Assembly: GCA_050309605.1 (NCBI GenBank)
Contig: JBNRMN010000090.1
Coordinates: forward strand, 1 to 64,000
Source: Anaerohalosphaeraceae bacterium
Lineage (GTDB): Bacteria; Planctomycetota; Phycisphaerae; Sedimentisphaerales; Anaerohalosphaeraceae
Direction: 5' to 3'
DNA: 64,000 nucleotides
How positions within the stretch are numbered: the stretch's first letter is position 1; every line of letters begins with the position of its first letter. Shown one piece after another: positions 55,156 to 62,035 of the stretch. Both the position numbers and the translations under genes were made by a program. The notes beneath the pieces were generated by a model that was given only the letters and a program-made list of their open reading frames with translations, had not been told where the DNA came from and ran no database searches.

Positions 55156-56100
55156 TTAAATTGAATCATGAGGCCCTAAAAATCGGTCCCCGTTATAGTG
55201 TATCAGATGGTCGGGCATTTCTGCAATCCAGACTTCCGTTTCCCACGCGATGTCTTTGAGATGCTTTCGAAACTCGGTAAAATCAGGAAACGCACTGACA
55301 AACACAAGCCCGGCTTTGATCGACCGGAAGATTTTCTTCAGTTCCGTGACTCGCTTGGGATTCATCGGACCGTGAGAGGTAACAACTTCAATCAGATAAA
55401 GCCATTGTTTGCTTTCTTGGTATAAGATGATATCCGGTAGTTTGTCATGATCGCTCAAAATGATTCCCAGTTTCCTGAGGTCATGACTGTTGTAATACAG
55501 ATTTTTTTTGGCGGTATCACTCAGATACAGCACTTTCGCTCCCGGCGCAAAACGCGGCCCGAATTCTTCAAGTACTTTGATCTGAACAAGATTGTGTTTG
55601 CCCGGTGACAGGCTCAATTGCTTGCCGTTCGGCAAAGTCAAAGGAATCTGTTTTATGCGCCTTGGATTTTGATACAGCTCTATCAGCAAGCCGTGTTTTT
55701 TGATAAATGCATCACAGGCTTTCTCTTGTTTGGCAGTATTCCATGCCTGAAGAACCTGAAGACATTCGGATGTCAAAGCATAATGTGCATTAGGGTTGTT
55801 GGTGGGCAATGCGGCGTTATCCGGATTGTAATCGGCAATACGAGCCTGAACGAATTGATGGAGCACCTGGCGCCGAAACGTCTCACGCGTATTGGGTGCG
55901 TACTGTTTTCCGTAATATCGGGATATAAAGGCCATAATCCCTTTTGTAATAGTCATTGATTGGCGTGTTGCCTTGTGCCAGGAATCGCGAGGCTTTAGGT
56001 TCGCCAGTGCCAACAGAGTGAGTCCCGAGATATCATTTTGCTGGGCTTTCGGCAACCCGAGTACCGTCAAAATTGTTTTGGCCTCCTCGATTTTCTTCAT
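55156..56100 (-). CDS. Type II restriction endonuclease, BsuBI/PstI family
   Basis: YAPNTRETFRRQ, LSPGKHN, KLPDIILY, IEVVTSHGP, IAWETEVW, IHYNG. Confidence 0.9.
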   Translation of the reverse strand: MKKIEEAKTILTVLGLPKAQQNDISGLTLLALANLKPRDSWHKATRQSMTITKGIMAFISRYYGKQYAPNTRETFRRQVLHQFVQARIADYNPDNAALPTNNPNAHYALTSECLQVLQAWNTAKQEKACDAFIKKHGLLIELYQNPRRIKQIPLTLPNGKQLSLSPGKHNLVQIKVLEEFGPRFAPGAKVLYLSDTAKKNLYYNSHDLRKLGIILSDHDKLPDIILYQESKQWLYLIEVVTSHGPMNPKRVTELKKIFRSIKAGLVFVSAFPDFTEFRKHLKDIAWETEVWIAEMPDHLIHYNGDRFLGPHDSI

Positions 56101-56115
56101 CGCCTTTATGTCCTT

Positions 56116-57726
56116 TTATCGTTGAAAAAAAAGCGCTGCAATAGCCTCGACGTTACAGCCGTCAAATCCCGCTTCTAAAGCAATCTGACCGGCTTGGATT
56201 ATTGTTTCGAGAGGCGGCAGCGGAATCAGTGAAATTTCCATTGCGCCCACTTGAGTATTTCCGTTAATAACGCGAAAATAGGTATCCAGATGTTTGCTGT
56301 TCAATAAGACTGCAAGTCCGGTCGCCTCTTGAGGTGTCAGCGTGCCTTCCCGTTTATATATATAATTTAGATGATTTTCAAGTCCAAGATGCGAGACCGG
56401 CAGAAGCGATTTCAGATATGGCGCAGCAACCAGGCGACGTTGTTCTTCTTTGGCACTGAAGCGCCTTACAAGGATGAGGTTTTGATTTCTTACACAAAGT
56501 TTTGCAGTTTCATTGCAAAGCCGAAGCCATTGCGGTTTTTTGTGTGTATGGGTTGGCCATTGGATTTTCATAGAACGAATATGATGAAGCCACAACAAGG
56601 GCACCGCCTCATTCGGTTGAGTGTCACTGTACAACAGAAAATCATGTGAACGAAACGCCACCACCGGACCGGTAGAAATGTGCAGGTTGTATTTTTCGAA
56701 AGAACCGGGCCAGGCCAGAATGCGCTCGACTATTTGCTCTTCGCCGCGATTTTTCGGCAAACGCAGAATATTCATTTTTGATCTGGTATCCAGCAATGAG
56801 TCGGCATCATAAACAGAGGCTTGAGCCTGGTTAAGGTCGTCGGCCGAATTGCTGACGGAGATGTGAATTGCGGTTTGTGTTTTTTGTTGTCTCCACAGAT
56901 CGCTTCGCGTCCCTTTTAGAATAATCATTTCCTGAAGAACGCCGTCCTTTTTGAAACCGTCGCGTCGCGAATCGAACAGATGGATAAGTTCCGGTCTGAT
57001 GAGGTTGAAAAAGTAATCTCGAAATCGCTTGAAGTAAAACCCTGAAGCGAAACTTCGAGGCGTGATGAACACAAGTTGTCCGCCCTTTTTCAGCAGCGCC
57101 GCCGAGACGGCCATAAACAGTGCGTAGATATTGGGTTGTCCGTAAATGACCGACAGAGCAGCGACTGCTCGGCGATCTGACTTGGAAAGCTTGAAATATG
57201 GAGGATTGGAGATACAAACATCATAGGCGGCGATCGCATCATTAAACAACAATGAGCCGCTACAGAGCGCATCCGCATGCTCAAGAATAAAATCGTTGGT
57301 ATGGATTTGATAGTCGAGTTTGACAGAATGACGATTTAGAATACTCGACATGTGCGACATACATGTGTCCAGTAATACAGACAAATCAGGGTCGGCTTCA
57401 TAGAGATCAAGGCGGATGATTTTCATCTGATGTGGGTTTCGGATAATTTGTTCACAGACTGCGCAAGACAGGATTCCGCAACCGGCCCCCGGATCAAGAA
57501 TTCGTATTTCCGGTCCGACCGGTGCTGTCAAAGAGGCCATAAATTGCGCGATGTCGGCTGAGGTAAAAAATTGACCGAATTGTTTCTTGTGTTCTCGCGA
57601 ACGGCGGGCAGAGAACCACTCTCCCAGTCTTTGGGCGTACTCGACCGCCGATTCTTCGAGGCTCGATTTCGGGATTTCCGAGGCTGTTTGCGGTAACTCT
57701 GGTTTGTGCTTTTTGAGTTTTAACAT
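56116..57726 (-). CDS. N6-adenine DNA methyltransferase (gamma class, BsuBI/PstI-type)
   Basis: GQFFT, motif I LDPGAGCG, motif IV NPPY, RRFSAKEE, ENHLN, NGNTQV. Confidence 0.92.
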   Translation of the reverse strand: MLKLKKHKPELPQTASEIPKSSLEESAVEYAQRLGEWFSARRSREHKKQFGQFFTSADIAQFMASLTAPVGPEIRILDPGAGCGILSCAVCEQIIRNPHQMKIIRLDLYEADPDLSVLLDTCMSHMSSILNRHSVKLDYQIHTNDFILEHADALCSGSLLFNDAIAAYDVCISNPPYFKLSKSDRRAVAALSVIYGQPNIYALFMAVSAALLKKGGQLVFITPRSFASGFYFKRFRDYFFNLIRPELIHLFDSRRDGFKKDGVLQEMIILKGTRSDLWRQQKTQTAIHISVSNSADDLNQAQASVYDADSLLDTRSKMNILRLPKNRGEEQIVERILAWPGSFEKYNLHISTGPVVAFRSHDFLLYSDTQPNEAVPLLWLHHIRSMKIQWPTHTHKKPQWLRLCNETAKLCVRNQNLILVRRFSAKEEQRRLVAAPYLKSLLPVSHLGLENHLNYIYKREGTLTPQEATGLAVLLNSKHLDTYFRVINGNTQVGAMEISLIPLPPLETIIQAGQIALEAGFDGCNVEAIAALFFQR

Positions 57727-57731
57727 AACCG

Positions 57732-59051
57732 TTATGTTTTCTCTGTTCGTTGTCGCAGGAGCAGTCGGATGGGGACTTCTTCCAGTCCGAGCAGTTCGCC
57801 CAGTCGATGGGTCAGGAAGCGCTGGTGCGGTTCATCGAACAGGGCGGGCCGATTGACAAACAGCAGGATGCTGATCGGTCGGACGGCCACTTGTGTCGCG
57901 TAGTAAATTTTCGGGACGCCGCGCTTGCTGCGGGCGCCGAAGCGTTCTTCGCTGATGATTTTAATCGCCTTGTTGAGCCGGCCGGTGGGGATTTTCGTGC
58001 CGGCCTGCTTGAACAGTTCCGCGGCGATATCCAGCACGCTTTGGATGTTTTTGGCGTCTTTGGCGGTGGTAAAGGCAATCGGGGCGTGCCGCAGGCCGAC
58101 GAGCACCTTGTCCAGATAGTCGGCGTAGTCCTCCGAGGCGGCGACGTCTTTGGCCAGGTCCCACTTGTTGACGATCAGGATGCAGGGCTTGAACTCGTCG
58201 CGCACCAGGTGGCCGAGTTTTTTGTCCACCTGCGACACGGGCGTGGTCGCGTCCATCATAAACAGCACCACGTCGGCCCGGCGGATGCTGCGCAGGGCGC
58301 GGGTATAGCCGTAGTATTCGATGTCGTGGGTCATCTTGCCGACTTTGCGGACGCCGGCGGTGTCGATGATCATATACTGCCGGCCGTCTTTTTCGAACAG
58401 CACGTCCACCGCGTCGCGCGTCGTGCCGGGGATGTCGCTGGTGATGACGCGATCCTGTCCGACGACGGCGTTGATGAAGGTGCTCTTGCCGGCGTTGCGC
58501 TTGCCGACGATGGCGATTTTCATCACGGCCTGGACGGGCTTTTCTTTGGGCAGGTGATCCAGGGCGGCATCGATACGGTCGAGCAGCTCGCCGCGATTGA
58601 CCAGATTCCTGGCCGAGATGCAGATCGGCTCGCCGAAGCCCAGCCGCACGAATTCCCCGGCCAGCGGCAGCTGTTTGGGGCTGTCGGCCTTGTTGGCCAC
58701 CGGCATCACGGGCAGGTCGTGCTTGCGAAGCAGTTGGGCGATGCGCGTATCCAGCGGGGTGATCCCCTCGCGGATATCCACCACGAACAGCACCAGACTG
58801 GCCTGGCTGATGGCCTGAAAGATCTGGTTTTCGACGTGGCTTTCCAGTGCGTCACTATCGACAATGCCGTAGCCGCCGGTATCGACCAGCTCAAAAAACC
58901 GCTCGTTGTACTCCAGAATTGTGCTCACGCGGTCGCGCGTCACCCCGGCCGTCGGATCGACGATACTGATCATCTGGCCCGACAGCGAGTTGAGCAGACT
59001 GCTCTTGCCGACATTCGGTCGGCCGATAATTGCCACCACAGGAAGCGCCAT
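57732..59051 (-). CDS. der: Ribosome biogenesis GTPase Der
   Basis: Two G domains: GRPNVGKS/DTGG/NKAD and GKRNAGKS/DTAG/NKWD. Confidence 0.96.
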   Translation of the reverse strand: MALPVVAIIGRPNVGKSSLLNSLSGQMISIVDPTAGVTRDRVSTILEYNERFFELVDTGGYGIVDSDALESHVENQIFQAISQASLVLFVVDIREGITPLDTRIAQLLRKHDLPVMPVANKADSPKQLPLAGEFVRLGFGEPICISARNLVNRGELLDRIDAALDHLPKEKPVQAVMKIAIVGKRNAGKSTFINAVVGQDRVITSDIPGTTRDAVDVLFEKDGRQYMIIDTAGVRKVGKMTHDIEYYGYTRALRSIRRADVVLFMMDATTPVSQVDKKLGHLVRDEFKPCILIVNKWDLAKDVAASEDYADYLDKVLVGLRHAPIAFTTAKDAKNIQSVLDIAAELFKQAGTKIPTGRLNKAIKIISEERFGARSKRGVPKIYYATQVAVRPISILLFVNRPALFDEPHQRFLTHRLGELLGLEEVPIRLLLRQRTEKT

Positions 59052-59284
59052 AAATCTCTCAAAACCGAAGGGATATTGTAAATTAGACAATAAATGATTA
59101 TAACTGCTTAATCTCACAATGCAAAGAACACTTCTAATTTGCTTGCACGAGTGCTTAAATGTTTGATTTCCAATTTGACGCTTGATTGTGGACGATTAGA
59201 GGCTGAAATTATCGATTGTGTTCGGTTGTTTTCTTCAAAACCAGACAAACATGATTTAGAGATTGCCGTAAATAAATATCAGAT

Positions 59285-59312
59285 TTGACAATTTATCGTT
59301 TTTTCATATAAT
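59285..59312 (+). promoter_or_regulatory. Consensus sigma70 promoter of the TIGR04255 operon
   Basis: TTGACA-N16-TATAAT. Confidence 0.75.
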
Positions 59313-59374
59313 GTCACTTCACGACTGTGTGATCTTGTAACCGGACAGGAGTATATATCCTGAGGAGATGAAGA

Positions 59375-60193
59375 ATGGATGTAGGGACCAAGCCAATACC
59401 GAGTTTTAAGAAACCTCCTGTAACAGAGGTTGTTCTGGGTGTTCAGTTTGACAAGCTTAAGTCCTTTAATTCACTTCACTACGGCCTATACAGAGAGAGA
59501 GTGGCTATAAATTACCCAAATTACGAAGATCGCCCCCCTCTTGTCAGTTCCTTTGAGCTTTTCGGAGACAAGGCTCAGTCATTTTTCAAGCAGCATATGT
59601 CTTCGATACCTCCGTTACGGAGAGGGTGGTTTATCGAAAAAGAAGGGAACAGGCTTATTCAGATCGACCCGGAACACTTTTTTCATAACTGGCGAAAGGT
59701 CACCGGCGATGAAAACTACCCCAGATATCCCAAGGTCAAAGAAGATTTTTTGGCTTTGTGGGGTGATTATTTAGAATTTTTAAAGGACGTTGCTTCGGAA
59801 GAGGTTAAAGTCAATCATTGGGAAGTCACCTATGTCAACCATATTGATAAAACTGAAGGATGGGATAATCTTGACGATTTGGAAAATATTTTCGCCCAAT
59901 GGTCCAGTGGCCTGACAGAAGGCTTTCTGTCTGTTCCGGAAACTCTTGAAATCAAGCAAACGTATGCCTTTCCAGAGCAAAGGGGACGATTGCATGTCGT
60001 TCTTCAGCCGGCAATCAGACATCGAGACAACAAGGAATGCATATTGCTCAGATTGACGGCACGAGGCCGACTGGATTCAAGTGAACCAGAAACAGTATCA
60101 AAGCATCTGGATATGGGCCGAGAATGGATCGTAAGAGGTTTTGCTGACCTGACAACTCCCAAAGCTCATGAATTATGGCAAAGAGAGGTTTGA
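59375..60193 (+). CDS. TIGR04255 family protein
   Basis: FKKPPVTEVVLGVQF, R.WF, LIQ, NWRK, YPRY, YVNHI, F..LTT...H..W pattern. Confidence 0.85.
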   Translation: MDVGTKPIPSFKKPPVTEVVLGVQFDKLKSFNSLHYGLYRERVAINYPNYEDRPPLVSSFELFGDKAQSFFKQHMSSIPPLRRGWFIEKEGNRLIQIDPEHFFHNWRKVTGDENYPRYPKVKEDFLALWGDYLEFLKDVASEEVKVNHWEVTYVNHIDKTEGWDNLDDLENIFAQWSSGLTEGFLSVPETLEIKQTYAFPEQRGRLHVVLQPAIRHRDNKECILLRLTARGRLDSSEPETVSKHLDMGREWIVRGFADLTTPKAHELWQREV

Positions 60194-60194
60194 T

Positions 60195-60680
60195 ATGACA
60201 CCTGAAACAGTAATTTCCGACCCTATTACAATAAAAGACAGCTATGAACTTCGGGATGAATTTGATTCTTTGGGCACTGTCTCAAGTTGCTCTACAGACG
60301 ATTTTTTTTCTGTCAACCTGACCGCTGTAGCATATCGAGCATTGAGTCAACTTAATGCCATAGCACAGTTGGCGGATGATTGGGATTCTTATGGAAGTCC
60401 GCGATTAAGCGAAGAACTGTACTCGAGCGCAAAAAAACTTGTTGACTTAATTCAAGATGCCTTTGTTTCACAGGCTCCCGATGTCGTTCCTGTTTCGGGC
60501 GGCGGTGTTCAATTCGAATGGCAGTACGGGGGCTGTGAATTAGAAATAGAATTCTCAAGTCCTTTTGAGGTTGCGTATCTCAAGGTTTTTGAAGATGAGA
60601 GTATGGAAGAAGGTGTATTTTCGATAGAGGAAATGGAAACCGAAGTCCGCAAGCTCCTGTCTTGGCTCTTTGCATATTAA
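60195..60680 (+). CDS. Acidic hypothetical protein with WDSYG motif
   Basis: LADDWDSYGS...P...GGVQFEW...LEIEF; starts immediately after the upstream stop. Confidence 0.75.
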   Translation: MTPETVISDPITIKDSYELRDEFDSLGTVSSCSTDDFFSVNLTAVAYRALSQLNAIAQLADDWDSYGSPRLSEELYSSAKKLVDLIQDAFVSQAPDVVPVSGGGVQFEWQYGGCELEIEFSSPFEVAYLKVFEDESMEEGVFSIEEMETEVRKLLSWLFAY

Positions 60681-60689
60681 CAAAGAACA

Positions 60690-61130
60690 ATGGGTAATGA
60701 AATGAATGCTGCCGAAGGAGCAACACAAAACAGCGTCGATGACAATGAATTACTCTATCGCTGTATAGTTGTTAATATCGAACCGCAACAGTCGGCTCAA
60801 ATTATTTGGGATGACAATGCTAAAAAATATCGTTTGACGTCTGCTGCTTTTAAGGATCCAGATAATTCTGTAGATATTGCCTCAAAAACGACTCCACAAG
60901 AATGTCTTGGAAGAAAGCCAAAAAGCGGGGCGGTTGCCGTCCTGTTGGCGATTGAACCCAAAAAACTGGGGTATCGTGTAGTTGAAGATCCTCTTCAAGA
61001 CAATCCGGCGCATGCGTTAATTCTCAGCGGAGGAAAGCCGATGAAGAAAGCACATAAAAGGATATTGGTGAAAAAGTGTCGATGGGTAATCGCCCCAAAG
61101 GGGTTTGATATGCTTGAGCCTGTGATTTAA
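60690..61130 (+). CDS. Basic-tailed hypothetical protein, possible ADP-ribosyltransferase/RES-like fold
   Basis: ELLYR...SAAFKD..NSVD...NPAHALI; the fold is an inference. Confidence 0.6.
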   Translation: MGNEMNAAEGATQNSVDDNELLYRCIVVNIEPQQSAQIIWDDNAKKYRLTSAAFKDPDNSVDIASKTTPQECLGRKPKSGAVAVLLAIEPKKLGYRVVEDPLQDNPAHALILSGGKPMKKAHKRILVKKCRWVIAPKGFDMLEPVI

Positions 61131-61175
61131 TCAAAACGCGGATTTGTGTGACACTATTTAGCGAATACTCAAGAG

Positions 61176-61901
61176 ATGGCGGAAAATCCCACAAAAAAAT
61201 GTCCGTTTTGCGGCGAGCAGATTCTTGCCGAGGCGATCAAGTGCCGGTTTTGTCGTGAGTTTCTGGAAGACGACAACGGCCTTCCGGTCTCGCACCATGC
61301 CCGGGCCGTGCGTACCGAACGGCCGTTGGCTCGACCGCCGGAGCCGGAGACACAAACACCCGAGCCGGCAGCGGACGATGAAGCGGCCATGGTGGTCTAT
61401 CCGTCGCTGTGGGCGCTGGCGGGGGTGTTTTGCACGGCGCTGGCGGGGCTGATCGCGGCGATTGTGTTGATGGCGTATCCGTTGGGTCAGTTGCTCATTG
61501 AGCATTTTGAGTTAAGCGAAACCGCCGCCGGTTCGGTGGACTCGGCGGCGAATTGGACGGGGCTGGTGTTGTTTTTGGTTCTGGTCGGCTGGGTGTTGTA
61601 TCGGGCCGTGGCGATCAAGCGGATTCGCTACGAGATCAGTCCGGATCGGATTGAGTTTGCCCGCGGCATCTTCAGCCGAAAGATCGACAATCTGGATGTG
61701 TTTCGCATCGTCGATATCAAGCTGCACCGCTCGTTATTGGATTGCCTGACCGGCGTCGGTGCGGTCACGCTGATGACACGGGACGAAACCGACCCGGAAT
61801 TTCGATTCGAAAAGGTCAAAGACCCCAAAGACCTCTACGATATCATCAAAAAGGCCACTCTCGTTGCAGACCGCAAACAGGGCGTGGTGCATTTGCAGTA
61901 A
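61176..61901 (+). CDS. Zinc-ribbon + membrane + bacterial PH domain protein
   Basis: CPFC...CRFC; two TMs; RYEI...RGIFSR...D. Confidence 0.8.
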   Translation: MAENPTKKCPFCGEQILAEAIKCRFCREFLEDDNGLPVSHHARAVRTERPLARPPEPETQTPEPAADDEAAMVVYPSLWALAGVFCTALAGLIAAIVLMAYPLGQLLIEHFELSETAAGSVDSAANWTGLVLFLVLVGWVLYRAVAIKRIRYEISPDRIEFARGIFSRKIDNLDVFRIVDIKLHRSLLDCLTGVGAVTLMTRDETDPEFRFEKVKDPKDLYDIIKKATLVADRKQGVVHLQ

Positions 61902-62020
61902 AAATCCGATGTACCTCAACGCCGGCAGAGCCGCTCACTTATGCCGAAACCGTTCACCGTTTACAGTTCGACCCGTTCGTTTAGAAACGCACCGAAGGTG
62001 CACTCTAATTGCAGCCCAGG

Positions 62021-62035
62021 GCAAATGTAATACCA
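62021..62035 (-). promoter_or_regulatory. Putative sigma54 (-24/-12) promoter
   Basis: Minus strand TGGTATTACATTTGC with exact GG-N10-GC spacing. Confidence 0.45.

Follow-up and report, generated by a model that had tools for sequence, protein, structure and literature searches.

Two described systems are among the closest to the locus reported here. In CmdTAC, an ADP-ribosyltransferase (ART) toxin acts on mRNA, an antitoxin carries a ChAD tail and a SecB-like chaperone doubles as phage sensor, according to the available part of the report (10.1101/2024.02.24.581848). PDC-M32 belongs to a set of 145 candidates that are embedded in BREX, DISARM or type I restriction-modification (R-M) loci, as given in the accessible part of the source (Payne et al. 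2024, 10.1101/2024.01.29.577857). Elsewhere in the partly accessible literature PDC-M32 turns up as a PADLOC hit from Sinorhizobium prophages and in no other role, and no published fold or mechanism was found there. Here we analysed a window of 64,000 nucleotides from an Anaerohalosphaeraceae bacterium (positions 1 to 64,000 of contig JBNRMN010000090.1), which harbours a cassette of three open reading frames (ORFs) encoding a TIGR04255 protein (ORF1), an acidic protein with a conserved 'WDSYG' domain (ORF2) and a minimal protein of predicted ART fold (ORF3). On balance, we favour a reading as a mobile tripartite toxin-antitoxin or abortive-infection cassette, in which ORF3 would act as a toxin of ART type that uses NAD and has an unusual Arg-Ser-His (R-S-H) residue set, ORF2 as its WDSYG neutraliser and ORF1 as a gate on ORF2.

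Comparison of the cassette with PDC-M32 and CmdTAC

The three genes are located on the + strand at 59375..60193 (ORF1, 272 aa), 60195..60680 (ORF2, 161 aa) and 60690..61130 (ORF3, 146 aa). The ATG of ORF2 lies 1 nt past the stop codon of ORF1 and is preceded by AAAGAGAGG; the longest form of this ORF begins at 60168. ORF3 starts 9 nt past the stop codon of ORF2, and the ATG at 60702 may be its true start because homologues align from its fifth residue. Upstream we found a sigma-70-type promoter-like site, TTGACA-N16-TATAAT (59285..59312, + strand), which agrees with the consensus at 12 of 12 positions and has ORF1 62 nt downstream. It is the sole perfect site among seven promoter-like sites in 58900-61400 (shuffles, 3.3 +/- 1.7). 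The tight packing of the co-directional genes and the perfect promoter had both been noted in the preliminary description of this DNA, and both agree with these coordinates.

The WDSYG domain of ORF2 has its homologue at the C-terminus of PDC-M32A, in the last ~100 residues. ORF2 matched positions 263-360 of the 375 positions of the PADLOC model (E 1.4e-8), and a profile-profile comparison with 31 PDC-M32A homologues (hhalign) gave a probability of 97% and an E-value of 4.6e-11. The gene order, adaptor before small effector, is also shared. In contrast, PDC-M32A is one protein of ~375 aa, the N-terminal ~255 residues of which are unrelated to TIGR04255; the window lacks this part and has a separate TIGR04255 gene in front instead. 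We also considered whether PDC-M32A arose by fusion of a TIGR04255 protein to the WDSYG domain and rejected this, as the N-terminal part of PDC-M32A reached an hhalign probability of 0.4% against TIGR04255.

On the effector side, the ORF3 family grades into PDC-M32B. Among 14 ORF3-like proteins tested against the PDC-M32B models, eight reached E<=1 and seven E<=0.01, whereas ORF3 of the window is below the reach of these models (E<=1). The two families are bridged by L044 and L042, since these relatives of ORF3 are linked to TIGR04255 and match PDC-M32B at about 4e-10. In locus L047, a gene for a full-length PDC-M32A (E 3.6e-120) precedes one for PDC-M32B (9.4e-50). In locus L036 (G340:C31:156885-160208), the gene for a 474-aa TPR protein ending in a WDSYG domain precedes a PDC-M32B-type gene (5.9e-34); the gene after these two is GmrSD-like (HEC-06/Orf5, E 1.3e-73), which represents a defence-gene neighbourhood. 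Other N-terminal modules are thus also fused to the WDSYG domain: TPR in L036 and, in 1+3 loci, that of the full PDC-M32A. PDC-M32A/B-type relatives match phrog_30544 and phrog_31579, two PHROGs entries without assigned function, and none of the three window proteins matched PHROGs. The preliminary description had presented the cassette as a candidate undescribed system. This needs qualification: the cassette overlaps with the PADLOC candidate PDC-M32, but ORF2 covers only part of gene A, ORF3 falls outside gene B and a third component is added. To this candidate we add a proposed fold-based mechanism, the third component and the wider pattern for TIGR04255, an unstudied family. A full-text literature search found none of the names TIGR04255, IPR026349, CHP04255, DUF7689 and PF24738 in any paper.

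The comparison with CmdTAC is limited to the available part of its report. Both loci combine three genes: one for an ART toxin, one for an antitoxin and one for a third protein, which controls the antitoxin and can serve as phage sensor; for the window these roles are presumed. Both are also modular, with swappable parts. The third protein of CmdTAC is a SecB-like chaperone recognising the C-terminal ChAD tail, whereas that of the window belongs to TIGR04255, has a guanidino-kinase-like model and is encoded first, not last. Moreover, the variable tail of ORF2 is N-terminal.

An ART-like protein and its WDSYG partner

ORF3 has 26 close homologues, and an exhaustive profile search yielded 2434 representative clusters (50% identity) at E<=0.001. 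ORF3 itself had no match in Pfam, NCBIfam, PADLOC (E<=1) or PHROGs, and none of 76 sampled family members (0/76) matched Pfam. Among 76 diverse homologues, L22 and H108 are invariant, and conservation is at least 90% at R24, S51, F54, S60, V61 and P101. The layout of Arg, S-x-D and His that had been pointed out in ORF3 (R24, S60-V61-(D62), H108) is thus conserved in the family at R24, S60-V61 and H108.

The structural model of ORF3 (pLDDT 89.7, pTM 0.82) has the split beta-sheet of the ART/NAD+-binding fold. KptA was the top row of a Foldseek search (E 0.07, probability 0.96), and an independent wide fold search listed KptA (7.7), mouse Tpt1 (6.6), AvrPphF (6.3), Tse2 (5.3) and Scabin (5.1), followed in lower rows by DarT, RES, ParT and others. 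The structural matches included 11 KptA/Tpt1 entries, with an rmsd of 2.4-2.7 A for the best of them and over chain residues 84-182 only. As modelled, ORF3 is a minimal ART-fold protein (core of ~125 residues) whose nearest match in shape is the lobe of KptA/Tpt1 that binds NAD+. From the earlier proposal of an ART/RES-like protein the ART fold was retained, and a match to the RES sequence family was not found.

In ARTs, an Arg or His in strand 1 and a Ser or Tyr in strand 2 hold NAD+, and in the R-S-E and H-Y-E clades a catalytic Glu opens strand 5. R-S-E transferases contact NAD+ with the strand-1 Arg and with the Ser of the next strand (Ser-Thr-Ser). In the ORF3 model, R24 is located in the first long strand (21-27), S60-V61-D62 in strand 58-63, and H108, within the motif NPAHAL, opens strand 108-112. 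Because the invariant His108 stands where R-S-E enzymes have the catalytic Glu, we describe the residue set as R-S-H. Members of the Tpt1 type are likewise not known to carry the catalytic Glu. The modelled arrangement suggests that ORF3 may carry out NAD+ chemistry.

By sequence and architecture, ORF3 is not a member of KptA/Tpt1 (PF01885): it has no Pfam match, the N-terminal substrate lobe is absent, and its context is a mobile toxin-antitoxin-like cassette, not that of a housekeeping gene. It also differs from the toxins of DarTG, ParST and Xre-RES in having no match to their sequence families and in its residue set; the antitoxin candidate of the window is not of the macrodomain or the Xre/DUF2384 type, and a third gene is present. 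No sequence relatives of the ORF3, ORF1, ORF2 or PDC-M32A profiles were found among solved structures. A tblastn search with ORF3 against plasmid and phage collections gave no match, and a BFVD fold search returned one viral protein (E 3e-3) together with weak viral Tpt1 rows.

ORF2 is acidic, as described before (pI 4.05, net charge about -22), and its charge is opposed to that of ORF3 (pI 8.74). Its first ~45 residues are variable among homologues. They are followed by a conserved core, NWDSYG...P.P.V.P...GGVQFEW...ELEIEF, in which W63, D64, P99 and G103 are nearly invariant. ORF2 has no match in Pfam or NCBIfam; in the Protein Atlas its domain is near unnamed clusters of ~114-130 aa, some of them viral, which we regard as a lead only.

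The triad recurs in other genomes. Among 41 relatives, 4 have a member of the ORF3 family, and in seven of 11 loci from species-representative genomes the complete triad is present with its gene order unchanged. Of the remaining loci, two are cut by a contig end within ORF3 and two are weak matches, one of which (L011) was later recognised as a triad with hidden Markov models (HMMs). Of 401 genomes sampled from the phylum, 24 carry the ORF3 family (in 3/24 with the match split over two frames). Outside the window, a TIGR04255 gene is located upstream in 17 of these 24 planctomycete loci (15 above and two below the cut-off), and a WDSYG gene directly upstream of the ORF3-like gene in 23 of 24, of which 16 were recognised by PADLOC and seven by an HMM built from validated members only; the exception is L046. 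In Bacteroidota, the family occurs in 11 of 301 genomes and a WDSYG gene is upstream in all 11. These 11 loci have a full PDC-M32A (three), an intact TIGR04255 gene (three), a TIGR04255 gene in pieces (one) or neither (four) at the front. In three Bacteroidota loci (L126, L127 and L128) the WDSYG/ART-like pair is preceded by a co-directional gene for 145-221 aa that matches neither the TIGR04255 nor the PDC-M32A profile and may be another front module.

A complete triad was also found on a 306-kb plasmid of Mycobacterium paragordonae (L133; NZ_CP025547.1 79746-81485), between the genes of a MobF relaxase and a type IV coupling protein. It consists of a TIGR04255 gene annotated as such by PGAP and two genes annotated as hypothetical, for a 180-aa WDSYG protein (1.2e-13) and a 142-aa ART-like protein (4.5e-15). 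The flanks differ among all seven long triad loci and consist of unrelated housekeeping genes (ParB, HtrA-like proteases, peptidase M42, Pol A, POR, ArgB/ArgD, MnmG and others). Since the conserved WDSYG domain travels with the ORF3 family everywhere, ORF2 would be the cognate neutraliser of ORF3.

TIGR04255 as a shared front gene and the proposed mechanism

The assignment of ORF1 to TIGR04255 in the preliminary description was borne out with 73.8 bits (cut-off 30, E 1.9e-20, model positions 2-251 of 252), also in the genome search. Across the sampled phylum, the TIGR04255 model was found in 71 of the 401 genomes (88 rows) and in none of 14 control genomes. Of 86 full-length TIGR04255 genes, 31 belong to the ART-type cassette, including 16 rows that coincide with the ORF3 list. 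We examined the 70 TIGR04255 loci outside that list, in which the genes mostly overlap by 4 nt or sit a few nt apart. A WDSYG gene and/or an ART-like gene lies downstream in 15 loci. In 12, the next gene encodes an Xre-type HTH protein of ~240 aa; seven of these have a co-directional protein of ~260-290 aa without family match downstream of it, and in most of the other loci the retrieved DNA ends there. In five loci a small protein is followed by a PIN-domain protein (one further locus has a PIN-like next gene), and in one locus by a MazF/PemK toxin. Three loci (L053, L056 and L082) encode a ~145-aa protein and then a ~150-aa DUF7689 (PF24738) protein in the toxin position, and DUF7689 may be an unrecognised toxin family. 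In two loci (L121 and L116) a ~235-aa protein precedes a metallo-beta-lactamase-fold protein. One of them, L121 (G003:C76:1-2836), is from a same-genus genome without the ART-type cassette and encodes a TIGR04255 protein (286 aa), a 233-aa protein and a metallo-beta-lactamase-fold protein of 346 aa. Another 20 loci have other, unclassified partners. A short N-terminal motif shared by the middle proteins of these operons was also considered and was not supported: TS[AST]G is present in 8% of 63 proteins and is confined to the Xre-type class.

PIN and MazF are classical type II toxins. These partners are the strongest contextual argument for placing the window triad among toxin-antitoxin-type modules, with TIGR04255 as a third part that can be swapped. 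In the mechanism that we propose, ORF3 would be the effector and, at the expense of NAD+, modify a target in the cell or deplete it. We favour a nucleic acid as this target, since RNA or DNA is the substrate of the proteins with the nearest folds (KptA/Tpt1, Scabin, DarT and pierisin). The acidic variable N-terminal tail of ORF2 would likely serve as a regulatory or degradation handle. ORF1, as promiscuous first gene, would control the pair, most likely by sensing, stabilising or modifying the middle protein. Phage infection, for example, might then serve as a trigger that lifts the control by ORF1 and ORF2 and frees the toxin, resulting in abortive infection or addiction.

Several observations weigh against this reading. 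In the ORF3 family no Glu is found past S60, either in the consensus or among the columns conserved in at least 90%, and the roles of the ORF3 residues were mapped by secondary-structure position alone. ORF3 did not match ART, RES or Tpt1 sequence models, and 76 relatives compared with 17 planctomycete Tpt1 proteins (hhalign) gave a probability of 0.16%. Tse2 and AvrPphF ORF2, two ART-like proteins without known transferase activity, are among its top fold matches. ORF3 also matches none of the PADLOC families (E<=1), and PDC-M32 itself is a candidate defence system only, as far as the accessible part of its source goes. No integrase, transposase or recognisable defence family was found in the flanks of the seven long triad loci, so there is no defence island at these loci. 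Finally, seven of the 70 TIGR04255 loci have no co-directional gene within 150 nt and four lie beside genes for an M48 peptidase and dihydroorotate dehydrogenase (pyrimidine), indicating that TIGR04255 is not always part of such a module. The tripartite toxin-antitoxin reading of the preliminary description is supported in part.

Alternatively, ORF3 could be a toxin with an ART-like fold that works without NAD chemistry. It would then bind its target or use a different catalytic route, which has been proposed for proteins like Tse2, with ORF2 as immunity protein; the locus would still be a toxin-antitoxin or defence cassette. We regard this as unlikely, because the best and most numerous matches of ORF3 are true NAD+-binding lobes and because conservation reaches at least 90% for both the Arg of strand 1 and the Ser that follows.

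A second question concerns ORF1. Its model (pLDDT 86.7) shows an internally duplicated sheet-plus-helix fold resembling a guanidino-kinase/McsB catalytic domain, and the lists of fold matches are led by guanidino kinases, McsB and the TATA-binding protein (TBP). SecB, which would be expected for a chaperone of the CmdTAC type, is not among the matches listed. Apart from TIGR04255, Pfam and NCBIfam gave no family for ORF1 (one sub-threshold Pfam match, E 0.066), and in the Protein Atlas it is near TIGR04255 clusters, again a lead only. Instead of a sensor or chaperone, ORF1 could be (a) an ATP-dependent enzyme of guanidino-kinase/McsB type that marks ORF2 or ORF3 by phosphorylation or in another way, or (b) a TBP-like regulator of the operon that binds DNA, comparable to omega in omega-epsilon-zeta, with ORF2 and ORF3 as an ordinary type II pair. 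Guanidino kinases carry an arginine cluster. This cluster is not conserved across 84 TIGR04255 members, in which only P15, E18, P48, F86, Q96, Y115, Y153 and F256 reach 70% conservation, and ORF1 of the window deviates at five of the commoner polar positions of the family. The regulator is disfavoured by the structural scores: TBP ranked first in Foldseek (E 1.4e-4), but with TM-scores of just 0.21-0.40 and an rmsd of ~10 A. We consider this alternative, with its two variants, unlikely. Because few positions are conserved and the window ORF1 deviates at polar ones, its model leans to a binding or pseudo-enzyme protein, with an active enzyme as the alternative.

In the alignment used for the ORF1 fold, two of 20 rows (the 271-aa protein of L035 and L043:2471-3148) are not validated TIGR04255 members. 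The L035 protein had been taken as a natural ORF1-ORF2 fusion. This was dropped because its match to the ORF1 family was circular, L035 itself having been in the query alignment, and an independent broad TIGR04255 profile matches neither L035 nor L043:2471-3148.

A wider generalisation is possible, and we put it forward as tentative. TIGR04255 could be a widely shared and so far unrecognised third component of toxin-antitoxin and abortive-infection modules, a sensor or (pseudo)enzyme of guanidino-kinase/McsB fold, encoded first, that gates unrelated toxins (PIN, MazF, DUF7689, metallo-beta-lactamase-fold and R-S-H ART-like) by binding or marking the antitoxin-like middle protein, in a SecB-like role with another fold and logic; the ORF3 family would be a new NAD-using clade in which His replaces the catalytic Glu. 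If the favoured reading is right, TIGR04255 would gain a role as common front gene of three-gene toxin cassettes, and the ORF3 family, large and without Pfam entry, would become a candidate new clade of ART-type toxins. The candidate PDC-M32 would likewise gain a concrete mechanism, consisting of a swappable front module, a WDSYG adaptor and an ART-like effector.

The weakest alternative, in which the operon is not a toxin system and ORF3 is a Tpt1/KptA-like enzyme that modifies or repairs nucleic-acid ends (2′-phosphate removal, 5′-phosphate capping) with ORF1 and ORF2 as accessory proteins, would fit the nearest folds and the kinase-like domain of ORF1, which could belong to a nucleic-acid processing pathway, but is very unlikely given the missing N-terminal lobe, the lack of any aligned Tpt1 invariant residue, the sporadic distribution and varied contexts, the pairing of TIGR04255 with PIN and MazF toxins and the family link to the defence-embedded candidate PDC-M32, which points to a conflict system.

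Insertion at a strain-variable junction between der and the PH-domain gene

The toxin-antitoxin-like cassette lies within a segment of 2111 bp (59065..61175, no strand assigned) between the 5′ end of der, named here from its label in the preliminary description, and the ATG of a PH-domain gene. The latter was confirmed by a match to bPH_2 (E 1.7e-10). The GC content of this segment is 0.421, compared to 0.605 in the analysed part of der (57732-59064) and 0.580 in the PH-domain gene, and GC3 is 0.36-0.43, compared to 0.71. The visible AT-richness reported earlier agrees with these values. No mobility gene was present among the six proteins scanned near the cassette, in agreement with the earlier account. 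The R-M pair, which had been placed about 1.6 kb away, consists of a BsuBI/PstI endonuclease and an Eco57I/N6 methylase and ends 1.56 kb upstream of the promoter.

We searched the DNA of four same-genus genomes for this junction. In three of them (G001, G002 and G006) the distance between der and the PH-domain gene is 144-175 bp. The der gene of G006 is 97% identical to that of the window, and the homology between the two ends at 59064 and picks up again at 61176. In G001, the triad sits on a separate contig (C37, locus L002), away from this junction. The short spacers of the relatives contain a conserved promoter-like stretch, TTGCCA...GATATGTT, before the PH-domain gene, which is missing in the window. 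Public contigs agree with these data. A 5819-bp contig of run X9, from a different study, matched both flanks with 1-2 differences, but in it 4085 other letters separate 59064 from 61176. Runs X5 and X6 contain loose contig ends with the cassette-free spacer and also low-depth contigs identical to the cassette, including the junction between ORF3 and the PH-domain gene. The relatives' short spacers and the public contigs together indicate that 59065-61175 is strain-variable cargo at a fixed junction, and the block is horizontally acquired and foreign to the genome. By strain, the cargo at the junction amounts to the 144-175 bp of the three relatives, the 2111 bp of the window and the 4085 unrelated letters of run X9, which makes this junction a clean natural case of a strain-variable cargo site.

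In the region 61131-61901 of the window, the PH-domain gene (zinc-ribbon, membrane segments and bPH_2) begins 45 nt past ORF3. A site scan detected no terminator-like site on the + strand between ORF3 and this gene. As its own promoter-like stretch has been replaced and no terminator-like site lies between, its transcription may depend on read-through from the cassette promoter. Across der from the cassette, the region of the R-M pair (55156-57726, GC 0.466) is also not shared with G006, in which the matching flanks are ~2.2 kb apart and the DNA between them is unlike the ~2.6 kb of the window. Both sides of der therefore look variable. Between the PH-domain gene and an ABC-ATPase gene, an element of ~77 bp (61948-62024) matches five other contigs of G006 with 84-92% identity. 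Contigs of several runs end loosely inside it (at 61960, 61987, 62006 and 62024), and it is probably a small dispersed repeat.

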